Shown here one piece after another: positions 4,221 through 59,174 of a DNA stretch of 64,000 nt; positions within the stretch are counted from its first letter, which is position 1, and the number at the start of each line of letters is the position of its first letter. The stretch comes from a virus. The notes below the pieces were generated by a model, which was given only the letters and a program-made list of their open reading frames with translations, was not told the DNA's origin and did not search any database. The DNA lies in the IMG/VR virus record IMGVR_UViG_3300035698_026991, positions 1,202 to 65,201 of that record, one strand, 5' to 3'. A program made the position numbers and the translations under genes.

Positions 4221-4652
4221 TTATTCTACTACATTAAATGTTTTTGTTTCGTAAGTTTTCTGTATTGTCCTAAACATATTTACTCGATTTGAAAAAGTTA
4301 ATTTCAAATAATATTCTCCTACTGGTAAAGTATTAGGAACTATTTGTGAATAACTTTTTACAGTATGACATCCTATTTCTAGATTCCCTGTTATTTCAGG
4401 AGCTGTAAATATTATTCCATCAACGAATTGTACATTTAAAGAACCTTTGACATCTTTATTTTTACAATAGCAAAATTCTATTGGTAGAGGATCTCCTCTC
4501 TTAAATGTCTCTCCTATAACAATAGGATCTTCTACAAGTTCAAATACTCTTATTGGAAAAAAAGACATATAAGTAAAAATACAAAGTATTAAAGTCATTA
4601 AACCTAAGGTTGTTATCGAAGCTATATTCATTTTTGAATGTTCAATTGACAT
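4221..4652 (-). CDS. membrane-anchored hypothetical protein
   Basis: N-terminal hydrophobic helix (ITTLGLMTLILCIFTYMSFF), 143 aa. Confidence 0.4.
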   Translation of the reverse strand: MSIEHSKMNIASITTLGLMTLILCIFTYMSFFPIRVFELVEDPIVIGETFKRGDPLPIEFCYCKNKDVKGSLNVQFVDGIIFTAPEITGNLEIGCHTVKSYSQIVPNTLPVGEYYLKLTFSNRVNMFRTIQKTYETKTFNVVE

Positions 4653-11433: not shown

Positions 11434-13542
11434 TTAACTTTGTAAACTACTTGCTCTATTCATCAAAGCACTTTCTGGATTACTATTATTTCCTGAAGAA
11501 ACATTAGTATTCACTTTTCCACCTCTACTAAAACCTCTTGGGTTTGTTGTAGGTAATGGAATCCTTGATGCTGTTGGTGGTGCTCCAGCGTCCAATAAAT
11601 TAATTGGTGATCCGGCTTGAGCAAATTGTGAGGCCCCATCTTTTCCTCCTCTCAACATTGCTAAAGCTTGATTTGCTATCTCTGGAGATATATTTGTTGT
11701 AGCAGTAGAAGGGGCAACGTTCGCTGGTGAAGGAGGAAGTTCTTCTCCCATCCCTTGTTGCATTGCTGCTTCCTCTGGGCTTAATGGCATTCCATCAGGA
11801 CCCATTGGGACTTCTTCTTCTTGCTCATCTTTTGTTATTGTGTCTAATGACCAGTTCCAATCAGTTAATATCTTCTGTGTTAGTTTTTGAGGATCAACGA
11901 ATGGTAAGTTGATTAATAATTGGAATAGATCCATATCTTGCTTCTTCTTAATATCTTGTTGTCCAGCGATAGAAGGAAGAACAAGTGCTCTATAATCAAA
12001 GTTACCCATAAGGTCATCTTTTTCAATTAATGGGAAAGCTTCCTTACCGTCATCTCCAACAATTCTTATTATCATATCTTCAGTAAAGAACTGTCGTGAC
12101 ATATCCATCCAGTATCTCATCAATAGTGCGTAACCTTCACCTAAGTGGTTAACATAAAGTCTAACTCTTTCTAGTGTTGATTCTCTTAAGTGTCTTACTT
12201 CTGTTGCTGAACCAGCTCCACCTCCTACACCCATAGAGAAATCATCTATACCTGAGGCATATCTCATATCTGCTTTTAGAAGATCTTCTTCTTTGTAAGC
12301 ACTAGCTTTAATATCACTAAATTGTACTTCTCTTACTCCATTTGGATCAACTGAATAAATGATACCGAATGGTCTTGTTACTAATTCGTCTTTATTTATA
12401 TTTGCTAAAGGATTAACAATCCACATCTTGTGAATGGATAAAGTTGTTGCATCAAGTCTTTGGTTCTTGATCATGTTCATCATTATCTGAGGATTTTCAA
12501 GAATCATTGGTAAACTGTACCCTTCAAATTCACCCGGTACCTTTAAGTAAGGGAAATCAATGAAAGCTGCTTCTTTAAAGTCATAAGGGATTGGCATAGA
12601 GCCACCATCAAATATTGGTGTATAAGCAGAACCTACATGCACTGAATATTTATCAGCAAAAGGTTGTGTCCACTCGAATACTTCGTACATCTGTAAATTA
12701 GGATTTGCAGAGTTATTATACTTATCGTCACCTGCTCCAAAAGAAGAAATATCATACGTTTTAGAACCTTTAACTGTCAATCTACTATTTTGTTTTACCT
12801 GAGTCCTGATAGAAGCATAATCTTGCAAATCTCCACCAGAATGATTTAATGCCAAAGCTAATCTCTCTGGATCTGCCCCTGGATATTTTCTTCTAATCTC
12901 TGGTTCTGTCAAAACAAGTCTTTTAAACCAGTATTGTTTATTTTCTCTTTTTGTATTATGCCAATCGTACCAAAGCGTATAGTTATCTACCCATTCTGCA
13001 CAAGGAGCATCATAAAATGTTCTTTCTTCTTCTTTCCATGTTGGTTTTGCTGTAATATCTTTTGTTTGTAAGAATTTTTGTTTCCTAACATCCTTTTTCC
13101 AAAATGCTTGCAAATATCCTGTCCCATAAATAAGGGAAGCCCTAACAACATCTTCAGTTGTAGTATCCATATGAGAAATTTCCCATAGGTAATCACCTAG
13201 TTGTTGTTGTTTACCTGTTTTTGCTTGATCTTCTGCTGTTCTACCTTGAACACTGAATTCAGGTCTAGCATCTAAAACTCTGGGCATAAGTGTTTCTACA
13301 ACTGCTTGTGTATAAGGAACAAATATATTCGACTGCCACTTCTTAATTTCTAATTGTCTGTCTCCTGTATAGGCAATATAAAGTTTATAAGACCTATCTA
13401 ACCTTGGTTTAATAACATTCAAAAAATAATTTCTCGCATCATCCATTTGTAAATTGAAATCAGATAGAAGTTGAACTTCCTCTTTTCCATAGTCTGATGG
13501 ATTATATATTTGATGTTTTCCTACTTTTGATTTTTTTGACAT
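11434..13542 (-). CDS. portal protein (putative)
   Basis: 702 aa directly downstream of TerL in the head module. Size and position fit a portal. No motif verified. Confidence 0.6.
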   Translation of the reverse strand: MSKKSKVGKHQIYNPSDYGKEEVQLLSDFNLQMDDARNYFLNVIKPRLDRSYKLYIAYTGDRQLEIKKWQSNIFVPYTQAVVETLMPRVLDARPEFSVQGRTAEDQAKTGKQQQLGDYLWEISHMDTTTEDVVRASLIYGTGYLQAFWKKDVRKQKFLQTKDITAKPTWKEEERTFYDAPCAEWVDNYTLWYDWHNTKRENKQYWFKRLVLTEPEIRRKYPGADPERLALALNHSGGDLQDYASIRTQVKQNSRLTVKGSKTYDISSFGAGDDKYNNSANPNLQMYEVFEWTQPFADKYSVHVGSAYTPIFDGGSMPIPYDFKEAAFIDFPYLKVPGEFEGYSLPMILENPQIMMNMIKNQRLDATTLSIHKMWIVNPLANINKDELVTRPFGIIYSVDPNGVREVQFSDIKASAYKEEDLLKADMRYASGIDDFSMGVGGGAGSATEVRHLRESTLERVRLYVNHLGEGYALLMRYWMDMSRQFFTEDMIIRIVGDDGKEAFPLIEKDDLMGNFDYRALVLPSIAGQQDIKKKQDMDLFQLLINLPFVDPQKLTQKILTDWNWSLDTITKDEQEEEVPMGPDGMPLSPEEAAMQQGMGEELPPSPANVAPSTATTNISPEIANQALAMLRGGKDGASQFAQAGSPINLLDAGAPPTASRIPLPTTNPRGFSRGGKVNTNVSSGNNSNPESALMNRASSLQS

Positions 13543-13575: not shown

Positions 13576-15048
13576 CTAATAACCACCAGAACTTGGTAAG
13601 TGTTGATCGTAATTAATTTGAGTTAGCGGTTTATCGGACATAACCTTGAATCCCTGACATGCGATTGCTGTAGCAAATATACAGTCATCGTGATATGAGT
13701 CCATTGCAACCATATTGTTCGCGTTGTTAAAAATAAACACAGTCATCTCATCAACGGTCTCTTTACTTCTTATTTTGATATTTCCTTCTCTCGTCATTTG
13801 TTCGAACTCATCAATAAGAATAGGCCTTGTTACTTTTGTAGTCTTCCAACCAAGTTTGTCTGACCACTTACTACCCATTGTATCAAAGTTCGCAGGTCTA
13901 AAATATAACGATGGATATAATAGATTTTTTAATATATTTAAAACAACATTTCCATGCGCCTCTGCTTCTACTACCATTAATGCATTATTATAATGTCTTC
14001 CCCATTTATCTAAAACCTTAGCAAAACGATCTGGTGCTATAAGACCTCTCCAGAAACCAACCTCTTCGCCAGTAGTCCTATCTAAGATTGAACATACAGC
14101 ATAGTCACCTCCAGTAACTCCCTCAGAACAGTCGGCTCCAGCAACGTAGAAATGTCCTTCTTGTGGTTCTTTATATACTCTGAAACCTTCTTCCTCCCTT
14201 ACTTTAGTTTCTTCTCCATTGTCCATTTTTACACTAGCACCTAATTTAAGAACATTTTTCCTTTGTAGAGCAATCGTTTCTTTTGTGAAAACAGACCTAC
14301 CTGATAGAAGAAATTCTAGAGCATAGTTGTTATTAAACTTACGAGGATTATTCATCCTTCGTCTTATAATATCTATTTCTTCTTCTGAGTAGTTCCACCA
14401 CCAGCCGTATTCTTTTTTAATGTAATCATTATCTGATACCCACATTCTATGGAAGTAATCTCCAACGGCTCCAGGAGATGATTCAATAATAATCTTTCCA
14501 TTAACAGGGACAGAAGCTTCAAGTGTCATTAACTTATCTTCAGCATTGTCCCAGAAAGGCACCTCTGTAAGAAGACAGTAGTTAATAGTATATCCACGAC
14601 CCACGTTGTCCGTTGATGGCAAAACAATAATCTTAGAGTCTGACTTAGGGAAAGATATTTCATACTTAGAGTTATAGTGAATAGTAGGCTTAAGAGAGTC
14701 AGGAGTTGTCCTATAAAAAGTTTTAATTTTATCTAAAAGTTCTGCAGTAAGGTCATTGTTATAACCAACAATCGCTGTCGAGACTCCAGCTGTTACAATT
14801 GTTTGATGATACAAAAATCCTGTTACACAGGTTGAGAAACCAATCTGACGAGCCTTCATAATGATTACACGATTGTGTTCTCTCATCGTATTAAAAATAT
14901 CAAGTTGGGCAGGTTTAAGAATAAAGGGAACTAATCCTTTCCCTTCTTTACCTTTGATTTTACAGAAATTTTCTAAGTAAAATCTTGGGTCATTTAATAA
15001 CTCAATGCTGGGTGCTTCATTAATCATATAATTCTGCTGCTTCCGCAT
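13576..15048 (-). CDS. terL: terminase large subunit
   Basis: 490 aa. N-terminal ATPase with KARQIGFST (Terminase_6-like Walker A variant). C-terminal acidic nuclease-like region. Precedes the portal. Confidence 0.75.
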   Translation of the reverse strand: MRKQQNYMINEAPSIELLNDPRFYLENFCKIKGKEGKGLVPFILKPAQLDIFNTMREHNRVIIMKARQIGFSTCVTGFLYHQTIVTAGVSTAIVGYNNDLTAELLDKIKTFYRTTPDSLKPTIHYNSKYEISFPKSDSKIIVLPSTDNVGRGYTINYCLLTEVPFWDNAEDKLMTLEASVPVNGKIIIESSPGAVGDYFHRMWVSDNDYIKKEYGWWWNYSEEEIDIIRRRMNNPRKFNNNYALEFLLSGRSVFTKETIALQRKNVLKLGASVKMDNGEETKVREEEGFRVYKEPQEGHFYVAGADCSEGVTGGDYAVCSILDRTTGEEVGFWRGLIAPDRFAKVLDKWGRHYNNALMVVEAEAHGNVVLNILKNLLYPSLYFRPANFDTMGSKWSDKLGWKTTKVTRPILIDEFEQMTREGNIKIRSKETVDEMTVFIFNNANNMVAMDSYHDDCIFATAIACQGFKVMSDKPLTQINYDQHLPSSGGY

Positions 15049-16735: not shown

Positions 16736-17002
16736 TTACTTTTTCTTAAACCCAACTGAGAATCTCATATTCTCAAAAGAATTTTTTGTTCCGCTCCATA
16801 GACCACTGGCAGCCAAACCGACAATAACACCTTGGATAATACCTTCTCCATTAATAACTCCAGACAAAGCGTAAACTGATCCTACTCCTAGCACTAAAGC
16901 AATGAGTGGTAACATTCTTTCTTTAATCCCGAAAATTCTTAATGCTCCTGTAACTCCTAACACAACTGGTATTAAGGTTACTAATTGAATTGTTGTATCC
17001 AT
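16736..17002 (-). CDS. holin-like small membrane protein (candidate)
   Basis: 88 aa with 2-3 hydrophobic helices, directly downstream of the peptidase/PG-binding lysin gene. Confidence 0.35.
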   Translation of the reverse strand: MDTTIQLVTLIPVVLGVTGALRIFGIKERMLPLIALVLGVGSVYALSGVINGEGIIQGVIVGLAASGLWSGTKNSFENMRFSVGFKKK

Positions 17003-17049
17003 ATTTTTTATTCTTATTATTAATAATAATAACTATAACACAAAACTTA

Positions 17050-18120
17050 TTAACTATAAAGTTTGTTTAACATCTTTCTGGTTATTGGACCGACTCTTCC
17101 AAATCCAGGGGAAGTCTTAGAAGCAACAACACTATATCTTAGCTGAAACTCACCGACACCCTTTTTAGTAATAGCTCCGTAGTATCCTGTACTCTCTGTA
17201 TTGATAGGAAAGACACCTTCATATTTTAATATATCCTGAAGTACTTTTATTTCACCATTCGTTTGTCCAAAAACTAAATCATTATTAAAAGTGAATTGAG
17301 GTTTATTTTCTTCTGGAAGTTCATCAAATTTAAAATTCATTGTATATGCAGCAAAGAAGTTTCTTTTATTAAAGAAATCTTCAGTAATTATTCTCTGGCC
17401 TCCCTTACCATGATTAGGTCCCCAAGAATCTTCTATAATAATTGCTTTCTTTCCTTTATACATTGTGAAATCAACAGCGGTTACTGAATGTCTTCCTATT
17501 GATGGTGCTTTTATATCTAAGTTGTTAATTTTAATTTCAGGGACTTCTTTATCCCATTCATTATTCGTAAAGAAGAACCATACCATTATGGGTTTCTTTG
17601 TTACTTGTAACGTAGAAGCTATAGCCTCTATATTCCTTGTTGGTAAAATAAGATAGTTTCCAATTTTAAATATTTCACCCACGTCTTCTTTGTAGTCTTC
17701 TATCACTGTTGTATCCATCTGTAAGTCAGTCATATTCTGTGAAGGGACTAATTGTTCTAATGTAACTCCTTCCTTTGATATTTCAAAAACATCAGTTCCA
17801 CCCATTCCTGGTTGTGGTTTATTAATTCTTTTCTTATAGATATCAGTTGCTGAAAAATGTACGTAACTTTTATTCTTCAACCAGTACATAATCCCCATCA
17901 TCTTTGCCATAGTCTGAGCTACGCAAGATCCTGAACCATCTTGGTTGTAGATAGGAAATTTTCTAATCTGTGAAAAATCTTTTTCAACCCAATTAACAGG
18001 AGTAAAAGAAGTTACAAGTTCCTCTATTTTATAATCCTTATTTTTTTCTTCCTTACTTCTAGTATCGATATTTGCTCCAGAAGTGAAAGTCATTTTTTTC
18101 TTTCTAAAAAAGTTAAACAT
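17050..18120 (-). CDS. endolysin candidate: papain-like cysteine peptidase with C-terminal peptidoglycan-binding domain
   Basis: QDGSGSCVAQT resembles the papain-family Cys active-site motif. C-terminal LQDILKY..GYYGAITKKGVGEFQ..RVGPITRKMLNKL matches the PG_binding_1 pattern. Confidence 0.5.
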   Translation of the reverse strand: MFNFFRKKKMTFTSGANIDTRSKEEKNKDYKIEELVTSFTPVNWVEKDFSQIRKFPIYNQDGSGSCVAQTMAKMMGIMYWLKNKSYVHFSATDIYKKRINKPQPGMGGTDVFEISKEGVTLEQLVPSQNMTDLQMDTTVIEDYKEDVGEIFKIGNYLILPTRNIEAIASTLQVTKKPIMVWFFFTNNEWDKEVPEIKINNLDIKAPSIGRHSVTAVDFTMYKGKKAIIIEDSWGPNHGKGGQRIITEDFFNKRNFFAAYTMNFKFDELPEENKPQFTFNNDLVFGQTNGEIKVLQDILKYEGVFPINTESTGYYGAITKKGVGEFQLRYSVVASKTSPGFGRVGPITRKMLNKLYS

Positions 18121-23869: not shown

Positions 23870-24811
23870 ATGAAAATGTTAATAACAGGTGGCGCGGGAT
23901 TTATAGGATCAAACTACATTCATTATGTGATGAAGAAGCATCCTGGTTATACAATTACAAATTTAGATTTATTAACCTATGCAGGTAATTTAAATAATCT
24001 AGTTGGTGTGGACCAGAGCGATGACTACGTTTTTATACAAGGGAATATCCTAGACGAATCATTAGTGAATAGATTAGTTAAAGAATCCGACATTGTTGTT
24101 AACTTTGCTGCAGAAAGTCATGTAGATAGATCAATAGAGAATCCAAACGATTTTACAATTACAAATACACTAGGAACTCAAGTATTATTGAATGCTTGTT
24201 TAAAATATAAAAAGAGATTCCATCAAATATCCACAGACGAGGTATTTGGTGATTTGCCGTTAATAGGGAAGGAGAAGTTCACTGAGAATACTTTGTACAA
24301 TCCTTCTAGCCCTTATTCAGCTTCCAAAGCTGCCGCAGATCATCTTGTACGAGCTTATCACAAAACCTATGGTCTTGATGTAACTATAACTAATTGTTCT
24401 AACAATTACGGAAGATTTCAACACGAAGAGAAGTTTCTACCTAAAATGATCATACAAGCTGTTAAAGGTGAGAAATTACCTATTTATGGTGAAGGAAAGA
24501 ACATGAGAGATTGGATACACGTAGAGGATCACTGTTCGGCCATAGATTTGGTCATTCAAGAAGGAAAAGTAGGAGAGACATACCTTGTAGGTGGTAATGC
24601 ATGCAAAAGCAATATAGATGTAGCAAACGAAATTTTAAAGGCTCTACATAGGGATAAATCCAGCCTCGAATTCGTCACAGACCGTCTTGGGCATGACCTT
24701 CGATACGAAGTAGATTCATCTAAGATAGAGAAAGAGCTCGGGTGGAAGAGAAAGTACAATTTTAAGGATGGATTAAAAGAAACAATTAATTGGTATACAC
24801 CAAGTTATTAA
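23870..24811 (+). CDS. rfbB: dTDP-glucose 4,6-dehydratase
   Basis: MKMLITGGAGFIGSNY Rossmann start, YSASKAAADHLVRAYHKTYGL (YxxxK catalytic motif), NCSNNYG. Start moved to the in-frame ATG at 23870 to avoid overlap. Confidence 0.85.
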   Translation: MKMLITGGAGFIGSNYIHYVMKKHPGYTITNLDLLTYAGNLNNLVGVDQSDDYVFIQGNILDESLVNRLVKESDIVVNFAAESHVDRSIENPNDFTITNTLGTQVLLNACLKYKKRFHQISTDEVFGDLPLIGKEKFTENTLYNPSSPYSASKAAADHLVRAYHKTYGLDVTITNCSNNYGRFQHEEKFLPKMIIQAVKGEKLPIYGEGKNMRDWIHVEDHCSAIDLVIQEGKVGETYLVGGNACKSNIDVANEILKALHRDKSSLEFVTDRLGHDLRYEVDSSKIEKELGWKRKYNFKDGLKETINWYTPSY

Positions 24812-25140: not shown

Positions 25141-25461
25141 ATGTCAAAAAGAGTACAAGAGAAGTTTATAGATCCAACAGCGCCTGTGGTAAAGAAGGGA
25201 GTGGAACATCATGCTGGATGGGTTTATACACAAAGAACATTAGATATTATCAACGGGAATCAGATGGCCATTATAGAAGCCCTTGGATTACCAGATAAAC
25301 AGGAGAATGCGCTTAAGTCTCAAGTCAGACAAGCGCTATACAGACCACAGAGGTTAGCACACTTCCTAACTGCTCAAGAAATGGCAGATAGGAGCGATGA
25401 GGAAGCAGAAACATTAAAGGATTTGCCTTTAGATATTAATACCCTAAGAAACGTAAGGTAG
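25141..25461 (+). CDS. hypothetical protein (gene bracketed by 20-bp inverted repeats)
   Basis: 106-aa ORF. No recognisable domain. Confidence 0.4.
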   Translation: MSKRVQEKFIDPTAPVVKKGVEHHAGWVYTQRTLDIINGNQMAIIEALGLPDKQENALKSQVRQALYRPQRLAHFLTAQEMADRSDEEAETLKDLPLDINTLRNVR

Positions 25462-25474
25462 ATTATTAAAATTA

Positions 25475-25494
25475 TTGACTCGTGATTTTAGTGA
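25475..25494. repeat. right arm of perfect 20-bp inverted repeat TTGACTCGTGATTTTAGTGA
   Basis: Reverse complement of 25102..25121. Confidence 0.9.
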
Positions 25495-26694
25495 ATTACA
25501 TCCAGAACAGGTGGGGCGTCAGCCCCCTCACCGCCAGCCTAGGCAGAAGCGAGAGCGAGGTAAAGCCATACTGAATTTTGATGGTTTTAATATGCATTCT
25601 CGTGATAACTTCATAAAAGCGGTATACCTGTTCCGGATATAGTTCATTAAGTTTTATATTATTGGAGGGTGATAGCAAGTTCGTTCACAGTATTGCTTGA
25701 GCCTAAGGTGTGAATGGAGGGGTAAAACTCTCCAATAGTATAAAATAAATAATATGAAAAAAATTGATTTCAACAAAACGTGTTGTTTCCAATGCGAAAA
25801 AATTTGTGATTCGAAGTTAGATCTTTTAAGCATCAAATTATATGGTATATGCAAAGGATGCATAAAAAAAGGTGGCAAACAAGAAAAACACCTAATGCAA
25901 ACTTACATAAACAGTTAATACCACAAAACGAATAACAACAGGCATATAACAAAGGGTACCTAACTAAAGGTACCCTTTTCATTATTTATTTTTTAGAATT
26001 TTTCACCTTCCCCATTACGCATAACGAGAAACGTACCCTACACCCCCCACCCTATCCCTCTAACCTTCTCTTACGAGTTTTAAGCTATTAACAACACATT
26101 ATACCTATATACGCTTTAAACCTCTTAGGGGTTGAGGAATTAACTGTAAACAGCATTGGGGAGTCTGGTAGTTAGTAGTGAACTGCGCGTAGTTCGTAAT
26201 GTATGGAATTGGAAAAGTGAGTCAGAAATGCAGATGGGTACGTTACCCTTATAGTTACTTGTAATATTGGGACCCCTAACAGACAACCCCCCAACCCCCA
26301 ATTACGAACTCCACACTGCACACAGCACAAAGCGCACATCGTCTATTATGCACACTCTTCGCTCTTCGCTGTGCATAGCTTTTCTCTCATAGTTAAAACG
26401 GTATTCCCTACACACAGACACTTCGTGTCTGTTACAGTGGTTTCTTACAGTTCTTCTCTGCGTTGTTCGTTGTTGGTTGTGTACATCGTATGGTGTAAAA
26501 CTACTTCTTTGAGTATCTAAGGTCGTAACACTAATAGATAGTGTGGATACTCTTATTAGATATTAGTAAGTAGGTTTAGCACCGAACTCCGAGTTTTCCG
26601 TATAAACACTCGTCACGCACATCGCACCACGCACACCTCACAGGTATGCAGCATACATCTATGCAAGCGATAGCATTACGAGATTAAACCTAAC

Positions 26695-27000
26695 TACTAA
26701 GCACCACCGTAGCGAGTTAGTCACAGGAAGTTTATATATATCTAACTAAGACATCTAGATCTACATCTAGACCAGTTAGAGTATGTAAGGCGACTGGAAA
26801 CAAACCCAGTTAGTAAGGACCGTAGATCCTTATATCCTGTTACTAACTCGTTACACACCACCGTAGCGAATTAGCTACAGAAGAATATTTGATATTGCTA
26901 GAATGTCATTATTAGTGAAGAGGACTCTTCACAGCAAGCCAGCTAGAGTCTTGCCTTCTGTTGCTAATTCGTTACACACCACAATAACGAGCTACACGCA
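26695..27000. repeat. degenerate direct repeats (~40 bp, three copies) inside ORF-free CA-rich region
   Basis: CTACTAAGCACCACCGTAGCGAGTTAGTCACAG (26695), TAACTCGTTACACACCACCGTAGCGAATTAGCTACAG (26843) and TAATTCGTTACACACCACAATAACGAGCTACACGCAG (26964). Also the perfect 8-bp IR GTGAAGAG/CTCTTCAC at 26917. Confidence 0.7.
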
Positions 27001-27192
27001 GCGGATAAACATATCCGTCGTGCATCCTGTTCTTTGACATCTTATATTGATAATATCATATTATTTTTACATAGATTACGCATTAGACCTCTAGTCTTCT
27101 GCGTCTAGCTCGTTATAACCTCTATAGCATAACCACTTAGAGTTATGTTATATCACTATTGCTATAACTATAGCATTAACTATATAATCATT

Positions 27193-27944: not shown

Positions 27945-28088
27945 ATGTTCTTAACTATAATAGCCACACTTCTCGCTGTAGCACTAATGATAGCAGTAGT
28001 AGTGACAACAGACTTCAAGTCTTTCTTCTCAGTTTGTATAACACTACTAGTAGTCGCTTTACTAAGTGTTCTAATAGCAACAATCTAA
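27945..28088 (+). CDS. small hydrophobic membrane peptide (47 aa)
   Basis: MFLTIIATLLAVALMIAVVVTT.. found by manual translation. Preceded by the conserved motif. Confidence 0.4.
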   Translation: MFLTIIATLLAVALMIAVVVTTDFKSFFSVCITLLVVALLSVLIATI

Positions 28089-30710: not shown

Positions 30711-31001
30711 ATGTTTACAATAACACTATTACTTATCATAGGTACAATATTAGTTATCGGAGGAATATTCAGAAACGAAGCAGTATTTCAATATAGAAAA
30801 GAACTAATAAATAGGATAGCAGATAGATCAAAGAAAGAAGCCGATGAAGCATACGCAAAAGGAAGTATTGATTCAGAAGAATTAATGAAATTAAACAAAA
30901 GAAGATTTGCTCAATTTGATGCAGTATCATACAACGAAATGCTATTCCAATTTTGGAAACCAATAGATACATTCTATGATATAGAAGACATCCTTTCATA
31001 G
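30711..31001 (+). CDS. membrane-anchored hypothetical protein
   Basis: N-terminal TM helix (ITLLLIIGTILVIGGIF). Confidence 0.4.
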   Translation: MFTITLLLIIGTILVIGGIFRNEAVFQYRKELINRIADRSKKEADEAYAKGSIDSEELMKLNKRRFAQFDAVSYNEMLFQFWKPIDTFYDIEDILS

Positions 31002-33497: not shown

Positions 33498-34316
33498 ATG
33501 AATAACGCAAAACTAGTCGTAGGAATGATAGTAACAGTAGTATTAATCTTATTAATACTAGCACTTAATCCATTTGTACAAATCGAATCAGGAGAAAGAG
33601 GAGTAGTAACAACTTGGGGTGAAGTCCAAGATGATATTATGCAAGAAGGGCTACACTTTAGAATGCCTATAGCACAAGAAATTCACAAAATGGACATCAA
33701 AATTAAGAAATTTGAAGTTGCAGAACTAGCTTATTCTAAAGATGCACAAATAGTAGAAGCTGCAGTTACTCTAAACTATGAGTTAACTCCATCATTTGTT
33801 AAACAAATCTTCACAGAAGTAAGGAAAGATTATGAAAGTATTATAATCACACCTGCCATTAAAGAAGCTATTAAATCAACAATAGCACAATATACAGCAC
33901 AAGGAATAATTGATAATAGACCTAAAGTAAGAATGGACATAAAAGAACTTCTTACAACACAACTAGCACTTGGAGGAATCACAGTTAAAGAAATCGCCAT
34001 CACAAACATTGACTTTGATGATGATTATGAACTAGCTGTTAAACAAAAACAAGTTGCTGAACAAGAAGCTCTTAAAGAAGTAAACATCACAAAATCAGAA
34101 GCAGAAAAGAAGAAACAACAAATCCTTATCGCTCAAGCTCTTGCTGAGAAAACAAGATTAGAAGCACAAGCTCTAGCATCACAACAAGGACAAAAAGTAA
34201 TTGACAAGATCTATGCAGAAGCAGCATTAAAAGCAGCTGAAAATTGGAATGGAGCATTACCAAACAACTTCGTTCCAGGATCCACATTACCAATAATGAA
34301 TATTAAAACACAGTAA
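33498..34316 (+). CDS. SPFH/band-7 (prohibitin/HflC-like) domain membrane protein
   Basis: N-terminal TM helix. GVVTTWGEVQDDIMQEGLHFRMP start of the SPFH domain. C-terminal Ala/Gln/Glu-rich coiled coil (AQALAEKTRLEAQALASQQ) as in HflK/C. Confidence 0.75.
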   Translation: MNNAKLVVGMIVTVVLILLILALNPFVQIESGERGVVTTWGEVQDDIMQEGLHFRMPIAQEIHKMDIKIKKFEVAELAYSKDAQIVEAAVTLNYELTPSFVKQIFTEVRKDYESIIITPAIKEAIKSTIAQYTAQGIIDNRPKVRMDIKELLTTQLALGGITVKEIAITNIDFDDDYELAVKQKQVAEQEALKEVNITKSEAEKKKQQILIAQALAEKTRLEAQALASQQGQKVIDKIYAEAALKAAENWNGALPNNFVPGSTLPIMNIKTQ

Positions 34317-34354
34317 GCACCTTACTGTGCTTATTATTATTAACTAATTTAATT

Positions 34355-34539: not shown

Positions 34540-35460
34540 ATGGAAAAAAACACAACAGATGTCTTAGAATATTTTAAGAAGAAAATAGATAGTGATCCAG
34601 AACTAAAAAAACTCTATGATAATGAAAAAGATATTATGCCTAAATACCAAAAAACAACACTAAAGACAATAGACTATCCAGATGCTCCATCAGGCAAGAT
34701 CAATATAAACAAATGGGTACCACCTTTCAAAAAAGTGAAGGGTGGTTACGGATTTGTAGGAGTAGTAGCTGAAGATTCAAAAACAGGACAACTACAATGT
34801 CATCATTGTGGTAAATGGTTTCAACAGTTACAAACTCATATGATTAAGCACGGTCTAAATGGAAAATCATACAGAAAGAAATATGGTCTACTCTCATCAA
34901 CTGCATTGAAATCAAAAAAATTAAGATTAATGCATTCAAAAGTTTGTAGAGCATCACAAGCAGCAGGGAAAATGAACTTAGGCCACAAAGGAGGATATGG
35001 ATTTAAGAAAGGAAATAAAGAAGCAGCGAATAGAAAAGGAACACTCACTAAAGAGGAAGCTAAAAATAGACATGGAGTATGTGATTTACAAATAATGTCA
35101 AAGATAATGGCATTGAGTAGAAAATTAGGTAAAACACCTTCACTCATTGATATAAAAAAAGAATATGGAGGAAGCATTATATCAATAATGCATTCAAGAT
35201 ACGGAAGTTACATCAAATATTGTAAAGATACACTCAAGCTAACACCTTGTATATCAGCACATAACCCAAAACTTAAGAACAAAAAAGAATGGAGAGAACA
35301 CTTAATAAAACTTGGTATAAAAATATCAAAAAAACAAAAAGGAAAGATATTAAGAATCTCTCACCTTCCAATGAAAGAATCCAGATACATATACAAATAT
35401 TTCAATGGAATTAAAAGTTATAGAAAAGCAGTCGAAAAACAATTAAAAATTAATAGCTAA
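34540..35460 (+). CDS. Lys-rich protein with Ros/MucR-type zinc-finger-like segment
   Basis: CHHCGKWFQQLQTHMIKHGLNGKSYRKKYGL resembles the MucR/Ros C-terminal motif (C.ECGK.FK.L..H...HG.T...YR..WGL). Start set at MEKNTTD. Confidence 0.4.
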   Translation: MEKNTTDVLEYFKKKIDSDPELKKLYDNEKDIMPKYQKTTLKTIDYPDAPSGKININKWVPPFKKVKGGYGFVGVVAEDSKTGQLQCHHCGKWFQQLQTHMIKHGLNGKSYRKKYGLLSSTALKSKKLRLMHSKVCRASQAAGKMNLGHKGGYGFKKGNKEAANRKGTLTKEEAKNRHGVCDLQIMSKIMALSRKLGKTPSLIDIKKEYGGSIISIMHSRYGSYIKYCKDTLKLTPCISAHNPKLKNKKEWREHLIKLGIKISKKQKGKILRISHLPMKESRYIYKYFNGIKSYRKAVEKQLKINS

Positions 35461-35466
35461 CACAAT

Positions 35467-35838
35467 ATGAAAAAAAACATAAAAGCTTTAGCAAAAGCTC
35501 TTAAAAGTATACCGACAGAAGAGGAAGAAGAAAAGAAAGCAAAACTAGTAACACTAAAAAAGTTAGCACAAGTAGGTAATATAGGAATTACTATAGGAGG
35601 CTTTAAAAAAGGAGTAGCGAAATGTGTTGATTACTCTGAAGTACAAAGTAACAAAAATTACATAAGCGACTATATTAAACAAGAAAGAGCTAACCAACAA
35701 TTAACTCAAGAAGAGTTGGGATATAAAGCTGACCTATCAAGAAGTACAATAAGTGCAGCTGAAAGAGGCTATGGAATCTCAAAACATACTATGTTTTGTA
35801 TTATTAACTCCTTAGGGAAACAACTAGTAATCCAATAA
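35467..35838 (+). CDS. XRE-family helix-turn-helix transcriptional regulator
   Basis: LTQEELGYKADLSRSTISAAERGYGISKHTMFCIINSLG fits the HTH_3 pattern. Confidence 0.55.
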   Translation: MKKNIKALAKALKSIPTEEEEEKKAKLVTLKKLAQVGNIGITIGGFKKGVAKCVDYSEVQSNKNYISDYIKQERANQQLTQEELGYKADLSRSTISAAERGYGISKHTMFCIINSLGKQLVIQ

Positions 35839-35844
35839 AATCAT

Positions 35845-36129
35845 ATGAAATATACAACACCAACAAATGATAATATCATTAAATTCATAATGAAATATGG
35901 TTTAAGTTTAGTTATTTTTGTCATTTGTTTCTTGTTGGTAGTAGGATTTGTAAAAAAAAATATAAAATTCGCTACCTACTTAGCAGCACCTAAGTGTAGT
36001 ATACAAACACTAGAAGATAGCCAAACAATTTTATATAATCAAAAAGATTTCGAAATTGAAACATTTGATTATAGAAAATATGAATACTCTGGTGATATTG
36101 TATCCATTTATTTAACAGAGATAAAATAA
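35845..36129 (+). CDS. membrane-anchored hypothetical protein
   Basis: TM helix LSLVIFVICFLLVVGFV. Confidence 0.4.
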   Translation: MKYTTPTNDNIIKFIMKYGLSLVIFVICFLLVVGFVKKNIKFATYLAAPKCSIQTLEDSQTILYNQKDFEIETFDYRKYEYSGDIVSIYLTEIK

Positions 36130-36625: not shown

Positions 36626-37894
36626 ATGATTATGCAACCAAAGACAATCAATTATTCAAAAATAGAAGTTCCTATCAACGACGGATCAAGCCAATTCGTC
36701 CCTAAGGTGGCAGCAAAGTTCATAGACCATGGATCTATCCTAAAGACGCTAGCAATCTCTGTAAGGGACAATTTGCCCATCCTATTGATGGGTGAGTCAG
36801 GAACTGGAAAGACTTCTGCCATAAGATATATGGCTAATCAAACAAAAAACGGATTAAGAAGAGTAAACCTTAACGGAGGAACAACAGCTGATGAATTAGT
36901 AGGAAGACTTCTAATCAATGAAAAAGGAACTTATTGGGTTGACGGAATTCTAACAGAAGCAATGAGAAATGGGGAATGGATTGTATTAGATGAAATTAAT
37001 GCCGCATTACCTGAAGTTCTATTTGTTCTTCAATCAGTCCTAGATGATGACGGTTATCTTGTTCTAACAGAAAAAGACGATAAAGAAATCATACATAAGC
37101 ATAAAGACTTCCGTCTATTTGCTACTTGTAACCCACCTGAATATGCTGGAACCAAAGAATTGAACAAAGCTTTACTATCAAGATTTGCTGTTTGTATTAA
37201 TGCAGAATTTCCACCTGAAAGAAAAGAATTTGAGATAATTGAACACCACCTAGGAAACGCTATTGCATCATCAGAAATGGCAATCAAAATGGTAGGATTA
37301 GCAAATGAAACTAGGAAAGCCAAGGAACTAGGAAAATCAGATTACGCAATTAATACCAGAGACGTACTAAACACCCTTAAGTTAGTCGAATTCGTAGATC
37401 CATTAGAAGCTTTAGGATTAGCTTTCGCTAATAAATTAGATCTAGCAGACAACAAAGCATTAAAGATAATGGCAAAACTACATTTACCAACTAAAAAGAA
37501 AGCACTATCTGTTAGAAAACAAATTAAGAAAGCAATAGATCTAAACATTGGAAAAACTTATCTGTTAGACGGAGATGTTCATAATGCATATTTTGGGTTA
37601 ACTGACGATGAAAAGATGTTCAAATCTTTAATCAGAAATGATTTAGGATTTATCATTGGAAACACAGTCAGAGAAAATGGAATCAAAGGAGACGAATTTG
37701 TGATTGAAGCAACTTACTACGAAGATGAAGATAGTGGAGCAAGCTCAAAAGAACTTTCATCAAAAGGAGAAAAAATAGCAAGTGCAATCAATATTGTTGA
37801 CGGACCTAACAAAGGGAAAAGAGGAATCGTTATACATCACGAAGACCTAGACAAAACACTAGATATCATAAAACTTATTTACGAAATCAATTAA
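36626..37894 (+). CDS. MoxR-like AAA+ ATPase (AAA_5 type)
   Basis: Walker A LLMGESGTGKTSAI, Walker B WIVLDEINAA, sensor-1 RLFATCNP. 422 aa with a C-terminal extension. Confidence 0.75.
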   Translation: MIMQPKTINYSKIEVPINDGSSQFVPKVAAKFIDHGSILKTLAISVRDNLPILLMGESGTGKTSAIRYMANQTKNGLRRVNLNGGTTADELVGRLLINEKGTYWVDGILTEAMRNGEWIVLDEINAALPEVLFVLQSVLDDDGYLVLTEKDDKEIIHKHKDFRLFATCNPPEYAGTKELNKALLSRFAVCINAEFPPERKEFEIIEHHLGNAIASSEMAIKMVGLANETRKAKELGKSDYAINTRDVLNTLKLVEFVDPLEALGLAFANKLDLADNKALKIMAKLHLPTKKKALSVRKQIKKAIDLNIGKTYLLDGDVHNAYFGLTDDEKMFKSLIRNDLGFIIGNTVRENGIKGDEFVIEATYYEDEDSGASSKELSSKGEKIASAINIVDGPNKGKRGIVIHHEDLDKTLDIIKLIYEIN

Positions 37895-37917: not shown

Positions 37918-39408
37918 ATGAAACTAATCGAATTCCAAAAAGTGGGAGAGATGCTCGCTAGAGAGCATAAAATAAGAATCACAGAAGGAAAAGGTTGGGC
38001 AGCAAACATAAAAAACAGAGCAGTATTCTACAAGAAAGATGATATCTATAATCTACCAGAAGACCATATTCTTGGTCTTCTGCTCCACGAGATTGCTCAC
38101 ATCCACTACACACAAGATGTTGCTATGCCCAAAAAGAACGAGGAACTATCAGGAATAACCCTAAATATGTTAGAAGACATATCTGTCGAAAACATAATTG
38201 GTAACGACTATCCAAACGCAGCTGAAATTCTAGAATCAACAAAAGTAGAAGTTCTAGATACATTGATAAAAATGTTACCATCAATGAATAACATATCAGT
38301 ATATGAAAAAGCTTTACTGTATGCTGCAACAAGATTCGAAGGTAGAGGTTATGCCTTTAGCATTACAAAATATGAAAAACTAGGAGAAAAGATTTCAAAA
38401 ATAATGCTAAGAAAGAAAAATGAAATACTTAGAAGAAACGAAACAAAAGACTTAATGCCAATAGTAAAAGAAATTGTTGATCTAATGGTAAAAGAAGAAG
38501 GCGAACCAACAGACGAAGAAAAAGAAAGAATGCAACAAAGTATTTCAAGAGAAGGAAATGCTAATAGTCAACAACAAGGAGGAGAAACACAAGAAGAAAA
38601 AATTGGTAAATTAAAAGCTGGAACAGGTTGGGAAAAAGGACCTGAAATAGATAGACATTTAACTTTTGTTGATCAAATAGCTGACCAAGCTACAAAAATA
38701 GGAAAAGAACTAAGAACAGTTCTTAAAAGAAACAATGCTATGGAATATGGGGGAAGATACCGATCAGGAAAACTCTTAGCAAAAAGATTTGTAAGAGTTA
38801 GAGCTTTAAACGATCGAAACCCATTCACCAGGAGAATTGTTAAAAGTAATCAAAGTTATGCTTTCGCTTTAGCGTCAGATATATCAGGATCAATGTTTAA
38901 TGGAGGAGAAAATAATTATGGAAGTTATGCTTTAAGTTCATTACACATGGTAGGAGAAGCATTAAGATATGCATCAATACCACGATCAATGACTATCTTT
39001 GGAGAATATGCTAACACAGTTGCCCCAATGGGAAAAAGTAAAATAAACTGGGATCAATTAGCAAATGTAATAGATGTTAGAAAAGCTAATCAAGGAGGAA
39101 CAAGAATAGATAAAGCAATAGAAGCTTGTACAAAAGAATTAGGTAAAGTAGTAGCAGAAAGAAAAATAATGATTGTTCTAACAGATGGATCAAGTGATCT
39201 AAGTGATATGAGGAAAGCTCATAAGAAAGCAACAAAAGCAGGCATTGAATGTTTAGGAATTACTATCGGAGATGGTTATAATAGTAGTTATATGGACGAT
39301 ACATTCACTCCTAAGAAAAACACAAAAATTGAAGATACGGGAGATACAGAACTAATAGGAACAGAATTTATTAAAATCTTAAAGACATCCGTAGCAATGT
39401 CTAAATAA
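37918..39408 (+). CDS. von Willebrand factor A (vWA) domain protein, MoxR partner
   Basis: MIDAS DxSxS motif AFALASDISGSM and downstream VLTDGSSD. N-terminal HEIAHIHY could be a metal-binding motif. Confidence 0.7.
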   Translation: MKLIEFQKVGEMLAREHKIRITEGKGWAANIKNRAVFYKKDDIYNLPEDHILGLLLHEIAHIHYTQDVAMPKKNEELSGITLNMLEDISVENIIGNDYPNAAEILESTKVEVLDTLIKMLPSMNNISVYEKALLYAATRFEGRGYAFSITKYEKLGEKISKIMLRKKNEILRRNETKDLMPIVKEIVDLMVKEEGEPTDEEKERMQQSISREGNANSQQQGGETQEEKIGKLKAGTGWEKGPEIDRHLTFVDQIADQATKIGKELRTVLKRNNAMEYGGRYRSGKLLAKRFVRVRALNDRNPFTRRIVKSNQSYAFALASDISGSMFNGGENNYGSYALSSLHMVGEALRYASIPRSMTIFGEYANTVAPMGKSKINWDQLANVIDVRKANQGGTRIDKAIEACTKELGKVVAERKIMIVLTDGSSDLSDMRKAHKKATKAGIECLGITIGDGYNSSYMDDTFTPKKNTKIEDTGDTELIGTEFIKILKTSVAMSK

Positions 39409-43752: not shown

Positions 43753-44538
43753 TTATTTATCTATTAACCACGTCTTACTTATTTCTTCTATCCTCTTTTT
43801 TATATTTGGAAGAGGGTGAGTCATAATTGTTCCCAGCACTGTCGAAACTCTTTTAGCTCTGTCACTTGTTAATTCATCTAGTTCTTTTTTAGAAATAACT
43901 TCGTGAGGATGGTTAAACATTTCCATTATCTCACTAGGTGAGATTGTTCCTTCGTTAAACAAATGATGAGGCCCTCTAACGCCTTGCCTCCCAATCAATT
44001 TACCTATTTCTGGAATCATATCTTCTAAAATGGTTGCAGATTCTTGAGTATTTACAACTTTTGTATACTTCAACAATTTATCAATTGTATTACGAGAATG
44101 ACTTTTCTCTGAAATTAACAATCTTGGACGAATTATTAGAGTATTAGGATCAATTTCCATGATCAGTCGTTCTGCCATTAGTTTTGTTTCTGTATAAAAA
44201 CATTGTGGATTCTGATCACTATCTTCGTATTTTACATCTGTTTCATCATCTGATTTGAAAATACAAGCTGAAGAAAAGAACACATGTTTGACACCAGCGT
44301 TAAGAGCAACAACAGCAACATGTGCCGCATCAATCACATTTACATCGAAAGCTGCCATTTTGTTTTCTTCACACCAATCTATAGATGTTCTCGCTGCCGT
44401 ATTTATCACGACATCATAATCCATTAAATCATTTGTTGTTATATCATTTAATCTCTTATTCCAGATATCAGCTCCTAAATGCTCTGCTAATGGTAGTCCA
44501 ACGAAACCTTTTCCTATTACAAGTATTTTTTTATTCAT
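43753..44538 (-). CDS. NAD-dependent sugar epimerase/reductase, dTDP-4-dehydrorhamnose reductase (RmlD)-like
   Basis: MNKKILVIGKGFVG Rossmann start and YTETKLMAE (YxxxK) motif. 261 aa. Confidence 0.5.
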   Translation of the reverse strand: MNKKILVIGKGFVGLPLAEHLGADIWNKRLNDITTNDLMDYDVVINTAARTSIDWCEENKMAAFDVNVIDAAHVAVVALNAGVKHVFFSSACIFKSDDETDVKYEDSDQNPQCFYTETKLMAERLIMEIDPNTLIIRPRLLISEKSHSRNTIDKLLKYTKVVNTQESATILEDMIPEIGKLIGRQGVRGPHHLFNEGTISPSEIMEMFNHPHEVISKKELDELTSDRAKRVSTVLGTIMTHPLPNIKKRIEEISKTWLIDK

Positions 44539-45071: not shown

Positions 45072-45475
45072 TCGTACTCAAATGGTTTCTCTAATTTAAT
45101 GTTCTTTCTAATTTTTTTGTCAGGTTTTTGAATTGAATCCCATTCATTCTTTCCGCAATGAATACATTTCCAATGCAGACCTGTTCCAAAAAATCTACGA
45201 AAAGTATTATCACAATTTTTAATATCTTTTTGGGCTTCTCTTACTTTTCTTAGATAATAATCATTGATAGATTCATTTGGATCACTCATCCATGAATAAT
45301 TAGGTTTAACTAATCTAAATTCATGTTGCCCTTTATTCTTCTTACATGGGTATTTCTTCTTCCAAAAACCACTAGGGAATTTTCTATCTTTTTCCTCCCT
45401 GTCTAATTTTGTTCTAATTTGACTAGAAGTTTTATCTGTATAACCCTTTTGTCTAATCTTTTTATATAAGCTCAT
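45047..45475 (-). CDS. hypothetical basic protein
   Basis: 142 aa, Lys/Arg-rich, CIHCG motif. Confidence 0.35.
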   Translation of the reverse strand: MSLYKKIRQKGYTDKTSSQIRTKLDREEKDRKFPSGFWKKKYPCKKNKGQHEFRLVKPNYSWMSDPNESINDYYLRKVREAQKDIKNCDNTFRRFFGTGLHWKCIHCGKNEWDSIQKPDKKIRKNIKLEKPFEYDWLLKIKI

Positions 45476-46151
45476 GATTCTTTTTTACATAGATGCTAGT
45501 TTTTAAAAGAGATTCAGGAGTACCCATGTCACTCCAGAAATGCTTAAGCTTTATAACATTCATCTCACCTTTTTTAAGATACCAGTTATTAACAGCTGTT
45601 ATTTCTAATTCATTTCGTTTCGAAGGTTTCAATGTTCTTATATAATCAAAAACTGTTGAATCATAAACATATAAACCCGTAACTGCTAATGAACTTTTTG
45701 GGTTATCTGGTTTTTCTATGATTAAATTGTCATGAAATACACCGAATCTTTCTGGAGAATCAACCCACTTAGTAAAAATAGTTGGACCTTTAATCTCTGA
45801 CCATTTTATTTTGTCTGCAAAAAAATTATCTCCTAGTATAACTGCAATATTTTCTTCCTTAGAAAAGTCTTCAGCTAAACCTAATGCTTGTGCTATTCCT
45901 CCTGCTTCTTTCTGGACTCTATAAGTTAAATTAACACCAAAGTCAGAACCATCTTTTAGGAAGTTAGCTATATCTCCTACATGATCACTACTAGAAATAA
46001 TAAGAATATCTGTAATAGACATATTCTTAAGGGTTTGTAATGGATACATAATCATAGGGACGTTAACTACAGGGACCATCTGTTTATTCATTACAGATGT
46101 TATCGGTGCTAACCGTGTTCCTTTACCTCCTGCCAGAATTATTCCTTTCAT
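45462..46151 (-). CDS. rfbA: glucose-1-phosphate thymidylyltransferase (short form)
   Basis: MKGIILAGGKGTRLAPIT ... VILGDNFF. Classic sugar-nucleotidyltransferase motifs. Confidence 0.75.
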   Translation of the reverse strand: MKGIILAGGKGTRLAPITSVMNKQMVPVVNVPMIMYPLQTLKNMSITDILIISSSDHVGDIANFLKDGSDFGVNLTYRVQKEAGGIAQALGLAEDFSKEENIAVILGDNFFADKIKWSEIKGPTIFTKWVDSPERFGVFHDNLIIEKPDNPKSSLAVTGLYVYDSTVFDYIRTLKPSKRNELEITAVNNWYLKKGEMNVIKLKHFWSDMGTPESLLKTSIYVKKNHELI

Positions 46152-58166: not shown

Positions 58167-59174
58167 ATGCCTAAAAAGAAAGAAGAAAAAGAAGTTAATA
58201 AATTAGATACAGCTCTATCTAATCTAAAAAAGAAATACGGAAATGATTCTGTTATGCAGATGGATAAAAATCTAGATTTCAAAGTCGAGTGGATACCGAC
58301 AGGTTGTTTCTCTTTAGATGAAATCATAGGGAGTGGTTTACCAAGAGGTAGGATCATTGAACTTTTCGGAGCTGAGAGTTCTGGTAAAAGTACAATGTCA
58401 TTATTTTTGATGTCTCAGATACAGAAACAAGGAGGTAAGGTAGCTTTAATAGACGCAGAGAACGCTTTTGATGGATCTTATGCCTCTGATATTGGTTTGG
58501 ATGTCTCAAAATTGCTCTTAGCGCAACCCGGATCACTTGAAGAGAGCATGGACATCATAAAAGAGTTAGTTGAGTCAGAGTCAATGGATATGATAGTAAT
58601 TGATTCAGTTAGTGCTCTTGTCCCTAAATCAGAAGCAGAGGGAGAGGACTTTATGAAAGATACTATGGCTATCCAAGCAAGACTTATGAGTAGGGCTCTT
58701 AGGATATTAGCTGGACCTATCTCTAAATCAAAAACTATAGTAATCTTTATCAATCAGATCAGAGACAAAGTTGGAGTCTTCTTCGGGGCCAAGACAACTA
58801 CAAGTGGAGGAAGAGCTCTAAAGTTCTTTAGTTCAGTTAGGCTAGAAGTTAAGAAAGGTAAGAAGATAGAAAAGAGTGATGTCCAAATTGGAAATCAAAT
58901 TATTTGTACAGCTGTAAAAAATAAAGTTGGTTTTCCTTGGAAAAAAACAGTACTTGATTTATATTATGCTAAGGGGATAGATTTATTTGCTGATGCACTT
59001 GATTATGGAGAGAAGATTGGTGTTATCAAAAAAGATTCTTTATCCTTTATGTTCGGTGAATTAAGATTAGGTATCGGTAGAGACAAGTCAATCAAGGCAT
59101 TAATGAATGATCCTAAGCTTTTCACAGACGTACACGAAGCGATTACTAATCAATCAAAAAAGAAAGATGATTAA
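58167..59174 (+). CDS. recA: recombinase RecA
   Basis: Walker A GAESSGKST, IDAENAFD, GGRALKFFSSVRLEVKKG and conserved loop regions of bacterial RecA. 335 aa. Confidence 0.9.
   Translation: MPKKKEEKEVNKLDTALSNLKKKYGNDSVMQMDKNLDFKVEWIPTGCFSLDEIIGSGLPRGRIIELFGAESSGKSTMSLFLMSQIQKQGGKVALIDAENAFDGSYASDIGLDVSKLLLAQPGSLEESMDIIKELVESESMDMIVIDSVSALVPKSEAEGEDFMKDTMAIQARLMSRALRILAGPISKSKTIVIFINQIRDKVGVFFGAKTTTSGGRALKFFSSVRLEVKKGKKIEKSDVQIGNQIICTAVKNKVGFPWKKTVLDLYYAKGIDLFADALDYGEKIGVIKKDSLSFMFGELRLGIGRDKSIKALMNDPKLFTDVHEAITNQSKKKDD

Follow-up and report, generated by a model that had tools for sequence, protein, structure and literature searches.

A prohibitin-type SPFH membrane protein encoded by an uncultured tailed phage

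What might a tailed phage gain from a gene for a prohibitin? The question is raised by an open reading frame (ORF) at positions 33498..34316 on the + strand of a 64,000-nucleotide stretch of viral DNA (hereafter the window; positions 1,202 to 65,201 of the IMG/VR virus record IMGVR_UViG_3300035698_026991), which belongs to an uncultured tailed phage with an SU10-type capsid. The ORF encodes a membrane-anchored SPFH protein of the prohibitin type; the gene is present in single copy, has no partner gene and is conserved within a lineage of uncultured tailed phages, and it is a new, divergent member of a viral accessory family that has been annotated for a long time. Structures of SPFH cages, among them those of prohibitin, HflK/C, stomatin and flotillin, have become available recently. 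The clients of these cages are actively studied, and the SPFH fold is carried by many phages and other viruses. We propose that the protein would assemble as a homo-oligomeric ring or cage at the outer side of the host inner membrane, where, during infection, it would modulate FtsH-type proteolysis or membrane integrity. Taken as a whole, we give this proposal somewhat less than an even chance.

The protein and its anatomy

The ORF runs from an ATG to a stop over 272 codons (272 amino acids plus the stop), and the chance expectation for stop-free runs of at least 272 codons, calculated from the base composition of the window (G+C 31%), is about 8e-5 over six frames. The ATG at 33498 is consistent with the N-termini of the nearest homologues in an alignment of 49 homologues, which also provided the family profile searched against the PDB sequences and the input to AlphaFold2. 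From the ORF itself, the matches to Pfam, PHROG and the PDB and 99 metagenomic homologues, it is almost certain that the product is an SPFH/prohibitin-type membrane protein. The Pfam family Band_7 (PF01145) matched residues 28-203 with 107.2 bits (E=1.3e-30, cut-off 23.6 bits) over positions 2-175 of the 176 in the model, and the viral SPFH family PHROG 200 matched residues 3-272 (E=9.4e-43, 147.7 bits). Searched against the PDB as a single sequence, the protein matched human prohibitin-2 and prohibitin-1 (PHB2 and PHB1) at ~1e-23, and HflK and HflC of E. coli at 2e-7 and 3e-6. The family profile extended the same ranking, with values of 1.3e-47 for PHB2 and 6.7e-44 for PHB1, where residues 14-269 aligned with PHB1 residues 14-270 of 272; HflK (4e-20), HflC (1e-17), stomatin (3e-15), erlin-2 (3e-13), QmcA (7e-12) and flotillin (9e-6) followed as weaker matches.

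Structure comparison led to the same family. The AlphaFold2 model (mean predicted local distance difference test score, pLDDT, 88.4) consists of a helix at residues 3-23, an SPFH alpha/beta domain and a helix at residues 175-249. Compared with the PDB by Foldseek, it retrieved the human PHB1/2 complexes first (E ~1e-18) and then HflK/C, erlin, stomatin, QmcA, flotillin and vault, with probability 1.00 for the PHB1/2, HflK/C, erlin, stomatin, QmcA and flotillin cages. Among viral models the best matches were annotated phage and giant-virus SPFH proteins, the best one in BFVD being the SPFH protein of Rhizobium phage Pasto. The SPFH fold that the original prediction had read from the DNA letters is thus supported by both profile and structure searches.

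The equivalog models of NCBIfam were missed, with 40.7 bits against a cut-off of 134.4 for hflC (TIGR01932), 28.8 against 660 for HflK (NF008181) and 22.7 against 427 for HflC (NF008259). An identity as HflK/C, stomatin or flotillin was ruled out by these missed HflK and HflC equivalogs together with the ranking of the subfamilies. The description of the protein as prohibitin-like holds, with PHB1/2 as best matches, whereas its likeness to HflK/C, which had been put forward along with it, is the looser label, because the HflK and HflC models were missed by a wide margin. In the classification of Hinderhofer et al. 2009 (PMC2636767) the subfamily is the "p-prohibitin" or SPFH4 type.

The N-terminal membrane anchor that had been noticed beforehand is present at residues 6-24 (LVVGMIVTVVLILLILALN, 33513..33569, + strand), with a Kyte-Doolittle mean of 2.97 across 19 residues, and was modelled by AlphaFold2 as the helix 3-23 with a pLDDT of about 90; a comparable hydrophobic N-terminal segment is found in 46 of 49 representative phage homologues. 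Cysteine is absent from the protein, and with it a lipobox, so that the protein is not a lipoprotein and the label "lipoprotein" given to PHROG 200 does not fit. The SPFH/Band-7 domain (residues 28-203, 33579..34106, + strand), delimited by Pfam, AlphaFold2 and Foldseek, comprises strands within residues 26-96 and helices within residues 98-158 (pLDDT 93-98). It is followed by the Ala/Gln-rich coiled coil of the original prediction, which takes the form of one long helix of 75 residues (175-249, 34020..34244, + strand) with 20% Ala, 15% Lys, 13% Glu and 13% Gln. In SPFH cages, its counterpart would, on the basis of the model, be the segment that forms the coiled-coil wall and cap. The start of the helix, KQVAEQEA, shows the strongest conservation in the family, with A180, K184, Q185, E188, Q189 and A191 invariant or nearly so among the 49 homologues, and aligns with AKQVAQQEA of PHB1 and PHB2. 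Next comes a C-terminal W-NG-xLP motif (residues 250-255, 34245..34262, + strand), recognised by its conservation, in which W250, G252 and P255 are kept in at least 90% of the 49 homologues; the confidence of AlphaFold2 is low there, and the family profile aligns through this region as far as residue 269, opposite PHB1 residue 270.

Among characterised systems, the mitochondrial inner-membrane cage of PHB1/PHB2 (PDB 8rrh, 9o9z, 9unl) is thus the best match by sequence, profile and structure. PHB1 has the same length of 272 amino acids and the same order of anchor, SPFH domain, KQVAEQEA-type helix and C-terminal segment; the phage protein differs in being only 24-27% identical to PHB1/2, in being encoded by a phage and in having one gene instead of the PHB1/PHB2 pair. 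The FtsH-modulating HflK/HflC cage of E. coli (PDB 7vhp, 7wi3, 9cz2) shares the superfamily and the general build at a weaker match, but the phage gene lacks the adjacent paralogous pair and its product lacks the long N-terminal extension of HflK. The operons of stomatin/QmcA or flotillin (YqiK) with NfeD (SPFH1/2/5) have the SPFH domain and the principle of an oligomeric cage in common with the phage gene, yet the match is much weaker and no NfeD adjoins the phage gene. Stomatin/QmcA and flotillin proteins face the cytoplasm. The bacterial SPFH4 genes are likewise without an NfeD partner, and prokaryotic prohibitins of this type have been predicted to behave like PHB and HflK/C (PMC2636767).

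Relatives in phages and other viruses

In a large protein collection, 99 homologues were found at E<=1e-10, most of them 43-80% identical, nearly all about 265-290 amino acids long and nearly all known from metagenomes alone; a representative library gave 292 clusters at E<=1e-30 and 2,584 at E<=1e-10. All six homologue contexts that were inspected are phage-like, with ERF, YqaJ, a GpA-type terminase, Prim-Pol, RNA ligases and many small ORFs. The constant length of the homologues and their phage-like contexts indicate, as far as sequences allow, that the SPFH gene is functional and under selection.

SPFH genes are ubiquitous in cells and could have been picked up repeatedly, so that the gene might be regarded as a recently captured host gene, a passenger without a phage-specific role. 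We consider this scarcely credible, since the gene is conserved within phages. The closest relatives (40-80% identity) all lie on phage-like contigs, length and motifs are conserved in the family, and just two source-named bacterial homologues occurred among the 99, at 36% and 34% identity. In GTDB (185,579 species genomes) only four cyanobacterial loci were found, at 29-30% identity, by a scan that depends on exact matches of short peptides and may overlook relatives of intermediate identity.

In IMG/VR the family alignment retrieved 80 further viral loci, where exact peptides of the query alone retrieved none. Among GenBank phages, 116 records were found, at most ~35% identical, of which 108 match over at least 80% of the length; the annotation is in most cases that of a prohibitin-family or SPFH protein. 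Halorubrum and Haloarcula viruses, T4-like Aeromonas phages and Ackermannviridae are represented, as are phages of Fusobacterium, Faecalibacterium, Rhizobium and Burkholderia. The nearest SPFH gene of an isolated phage is that of Acinetobacter phage nACB2 (35% identical; positions 74811-77575 of the record for the region), annotated as "protease". Its product, gp101, belongs to the same PHROG 200 family, as do the proteins of Burkholderia phage CSP3, Faecalibacterium phage FP_Toutatis, Fusobacterium phage Fnu1, Rhizobium phage Pasto, Aeromonas phage PX29 and the haloviruses HF2 and HRTV-8. The window protein differs from these isolated members by its identity of at most 35%, its close relatives being metagenomic only.

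ORFs of this kind have been recorded in phage genomes since at least 2006, when they were listed for the T4-like phages 44RR, Aeh1 and RB43 (PMC1524935), and also in Vi01-like phages (PMC3220722), haloviruses (PMC7230728) and numerous other phages. Phage SPFH homologues are expressed during infection, since lysates of the Vi01-like and Erwinia jumbo phages Sajous1 and RisingSun yielded peptides of these proteins (PMC10892097, PMC6034870). Moreover, a Band-7-like protein of mycobacteriophage LeBron showed mild toxicity when overexpressed (PMC13148394). As phage-type SPFH genes are common and have been annotated for years, the find is sound but ordinary; this copy has nothing especially unusual, and the gene alone leaves existing knowledge unchanged.

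Copy number, partners and possible action at the membrane

A search of the six-frame translation of the window with the family hidden Markov model revealed no further SPFH gene. Of 85 related loci, 84 have one copy each, the lone exception resembling a split gene. The single copy points to a homo-oligomer and excludes a heterodimer like PHB1/PHB2, unless a host subunit joins. A partner gene for FtsH or NfeD, for which the original prediction had suggested a search, did not emerge from the window. No ORF there combines Walker A and HEXXH in the manner of FtsH, the only AAA+ protein being MoxR-like, and no NfeD was recognised by Pfam in the two flanking ORFs and the three anchored ORFs of NfeD-compatible size (94-143 amino acids; 4221-4652, 30711-31001 and 35845-36129, all without a Pfam match), a scan that left out some small ORFs. 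For a survey of neighbours, ORFs were called in 89 loci, the SPFH genes were sorted into 50 groups at 80% identity, and 806 neighbours within 5 genes on either side were compared by all-against-all BLAST. No conserved neighbour was found among the 49-50 phage SPFH groups, the top cluster occurring in just 3 of them and never at a fixed position. Small transmembrane proteins were present at -1 in 10 of 49 groups and at +1 in 8 of 49, with 1-8 at other offsets, an unconvincing enrichment. Without a protease or NfeD of its own and without a conserved neighbour, the SPFH protein would act alone or on host components.

The cages of PHB and HflK/C lie on the intermembrane-space and periplasmic side, respectively, and regulate m-AAA and FtsH, according to two reports (PMC13376388, PMC12048511). 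Because both enclose and regulate FtsH-type proteases, the phage protein may modulate host FtsH or membrane quality control. In the mechanism we envisage, the protein would insert N-in/C-out into the host cytoplasmic membrane after infection, with its bulk on the outer (periplasmic) face, and the conserved helix would mediate its assembly into a homo-oligomeric ring or cage enclosing a patch of membrane. The enclosed client would be a host FtsH-type AAA+ protease or its substrates, as in the two closest characterised relatives, and the phage might in this way adjust the turnover of membrane proteins, for example sparing its own small membrane proteins encoded in the same block. Judged by analogy with these relatives, an oligomeric ring or cage is probable and the outward-facing topology is favoured with some reserve, while a function linked to FtsH is put forward as a tentative suggestion. 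A small, single-gene and partner-less phage prohibitin might serve as a simple model for the assembly of homo-oligomeric cages, and could be used to probe what viruses need from host membrane quality control.

Several points weigh against this proposal. The AlphaFold2 model is that of a monomer and carries no information on the oligomeric state. The flanks of the anchor, with one Lys before it and one Arg and two Glu after it, differ little in charge, and a crude positive-inside count over the homologues gave no clear orientation. Haloarchaeal viruses account for 40 of the 116 GenBank records, and giant viruses have homologues as well; to our knowledge, the hosts of the haloarchaeal viruses are without FtsH, so that an FtsH-dependent role cannot hold for the entire viral family. 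The sole pointer to the host of the window phage is the pattern of its gene starts, since a Shine-Dalgarno-like 4-mer lies upstream of 4% of 89 genes against a background of 9.6%, while positions -10 to -3 of the leaders are rich in A and position -1 is T. Scarce Shine-Dalgarno sites and A-rich leaders are typical of Bacteroidota-like translation initiation, and because of them the sequence hints at a Bacteroidota-like host. Finally, full-text searches of the literature yielded no functional study of a phage SPFH protein, only mentions in genome descriptions, and a 2026 paper states that the reason for SPFH proteins in phages remains unclear (PMC13239085).

The wide spread of the family across strictly virulent phages (T4-like Aeromonas phages, Ackermannviridae, Fusobacterium phages) and across haloarchaeal and giant viruses suggests a generic membrane role, and would suit a membrane stabiliser that is independent of FtsH. 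In that case the ring would scaffold or rigidify the host membrane like flotillin, YdjI-PspA or the T4 rII proteins, keeping proton-motive force and integrity until lysis, and could blunt depolarising abortive-infection effectors. The SPFH gene shares its block with small membrane proteins (eight, counting the SPFH protein), cellular SPFH proteins act in responses to membrane stress (PMC8581546), and the SPFH gene of nACB2 lies two genes downstream of rIIB, an anecdotal hint. However, it is the two protease-linked subfamilies, and not flotillin or YdjI, that come closest among characterised relatives, the adjacency to rII is a single anecdote, and no neighbour is conserved across groups; a stabiliser of this kind is therefore a minority possibility, which we regard as rather unlikely.

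A different kind of action might be read from the 3' end of the gene. A 9-bp hairpin with a T-rich tail spans the stop codon (34309..34329, + strand) as a terminator-like site; its minimum free energy is -11.5 kcal/mol (z=-3.74), and none of 200 shuffles was equally stable. The hairpin could act as an intrinsic terminator or attenuator, or might stabilise the SPFH transcript at its 3' end. For SPFH genes and the other genes of the same loci (L001-L088, crude gene calls), 3' ends and intergenic gaps were compared. Over 49 groups, the SPFH 3' ends are more structured (median -9.1 versus -6.8 kcal/mol, p=0.001) and the downstream gap is larger (45 versus 6 nt, p=0.0002), the upstream gaps being alike; together this suggests that phage SPFH genes often close a transcription unit. 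Such signals would also be in keeping with a moron-type gene for superinfection exclusion or host protection, expressed on its own and blocking DNA entry or receptor function of competitors at the membrane. The neighbours of the gene differ between phages, and in phage PhiSH19 the SPFH gene adjoins an annotated superinfection-exclusion gene (PMC3220722). On the other hand, the upstream gap is not enlarged, counts of promoter-like and terminator-like consensus sites between 25 and 42.5 kb did not exceed those of shuffles and gave no convincing promoter of its own, and no integrase was found among the window genes scanned. No defence model was matched either, as PADLOC-DB 2.0 gave 0 families at E<=0.01 for the SPFH protein, and the MucR-like and von Willebrand factor A (VWA) proteins of the window were likewise unmatched. 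We know of no SPFH protein that acts as an exclusion factor, and regard such a role as unlikely.

Beside the SPFH genes of three unrelated phage contigs (L029, L032 and L092) lies a gene for a pilin-like protein. A type-IV-pilin-like N-terminus (GFT[LV]IEL followed by a hydrophobic run) occurs in 2 of 2,631 ORFs of the loci analysed first, both of which adjoin an SPFH gene (L029, 7514-7903, at -1; L032, 4815-5183, at +1), and the ORF at +1 of the SPFH gene of L092 (8864-9061) is a Pfam N_methyl protein. A pilin-like small protein may thus be an occasional partner of SPFH proteins. The window contains no pilin-like gene (one chance-level DNA match lies inside another gene), and the motif was absent from the SPFH neighbours of Aeromonas phage PX29. 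One may speculate that the metagenomic clade represents a phage-adapted, homo-oligomeric prohibitin used as a counter-measure within the host inner membrane, which would cage host FtsH or shield the membrane from depolarising abortive-infection effectors in the manner of T4 rII and which, in some phages, would have a pseudopilin-like partner replacing NfeD; we see little probability in this extended version.

Neighbouring genes and the genome of the phage

The SPFH gene is part of a + strand block of mostly small genes (~27.1-41.6 kb), situated between the - strand structural module and the replication genes. Directly downstream of it follow a 55-aa ORF and two regulators, which the original prediction had named as neighbours and which were confirmed as a ROS/MucR zinc-finger protein (34540-35460; ROS_MUCR E=4e-8, above cut-off) and an XRE helix-turn-helix protein (35467-35838; HTH_3 E=4e-8). 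HflK and HflC have historically been linked to the lysogeny of phage lambda. With these two DNA-binding regulators adjacent, and given the homology to HflK/C, the SPFH protein might be thought to control the choice between lysis and lysogeny by tuning the degradation of a phage regulator by FtsH, perhaps of the XRE or MucR-like protein, as HflK/C does for CII. The XRE protein weakly matches a PHROG named "CII-like regulator" (E=8e-5), and contig L092, a relative of the window phage, also has a ROS_MUCR gene near its SPFH gene. Nevertheless, a lambda-style control is very improbable, since neither an integrase nor another lysogeny gene was seen in the scanned parts of the window and the family is common in obligately lytic phages. 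Moreover, the link to MucR is confined to the same phage lineage, the regulators are not conserved neighbours elsewhere, and a protein whose bulk is periplasmic would have only an indirect influence on cytoplasmic regulators.

Counting the SPFH protein itself, eight predicted membrane proteins are encoded between 27945 and 36129 on the + strand of the block; the small ones, of 46-96 amino acids, start at 27945, 28402, 28615, 30711, 31505, 32170 and 35845. About 2.3 kb downstream of the SPFH gene there is a pair formed by a MoxR/CobS-like AAA+ ATPase (36626-37894; AAA_5 E=3e-29, PHROG 249) and a VWA protein with a metalloprotease-like HEIAH motif near its N-terminus (37918-39408). The lysis cassette, in turn, is likely to lie at 16736-18120 on the - strand, where a two-transmembrane, holin-like protein of 88 amino acids (16736-17002) is encoded next to a papain-family Peptidase_C1 protein with PG_binding_1 (17050-18120), which would be an unusual architecture for an endolysin. 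Since this candidate cassette is 15 kb away and on the opposite strand, the SPFH gene is outside it.

Just upstream of the + strand block, about 1.7 kb (25460-27145) are poor in ORFs and have a G+C of ~0.38 against 0.31. A ~25-nt motif, CACCACCGTAGCGAGTTAGTCACAG, occurs here between 26700 and 27120 in three direct copies, which are spaced by 154 and 121 nt and interspersed with inverted copies of 18-21 nt that are 90-94% complementary. No Rfam family matched the repeat region, the tRNA-Thr gene being the only Rfam match in the window; the array could be an iteron/origin array or an operator array.

The assignment to a tailed phage is borne out by an SU10-type major capsid protein (8218-9477), an SU10-type portal (11434-13542) and a T4-gp17-like large terminase (13576-15048). 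Among 50,697 phage records, no nucleotide relative was found for 30-40 kb of the window. In addition to one tRNA-Thr, the window encodes a Prim-Pol/DnaB helicase, an SNF2 helicase, RecA and a GroEL/GroES pair; GroEL (48759-50381, - strand) is recognised by Cpn60_TCP1 (E=4e-61), and the GroES-sized protein (48024-48326, - strand) is assigned by size and position alone. Sugar-nucleotide genes are located at 23870-24811, 43753-44538, 45462-46151 and 789-1706, and similar genes are present on related contigs. The set includes an RmlA-type nucleotidyltransferase (E=7e-50), an RmlD-like reductase and a family-2 glycosyltransferase, and the product of 23870-24811 is epimerase/dehydratase-like, recognised solely by its N-terminal GxxGxxG motif. 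The canonical RecA (58167-59174; Pfam E=4e-93) has metagenomic homologues, one of them 93% identical and many 70-80%, on contigs of up to 112 kb. The one of their contexts that was inspected (87 kb) has a Prim-Pol/DnaB helicase, as does the window, and, from their sequences, the RecA relatives point to a large lineage of uncultured phages.

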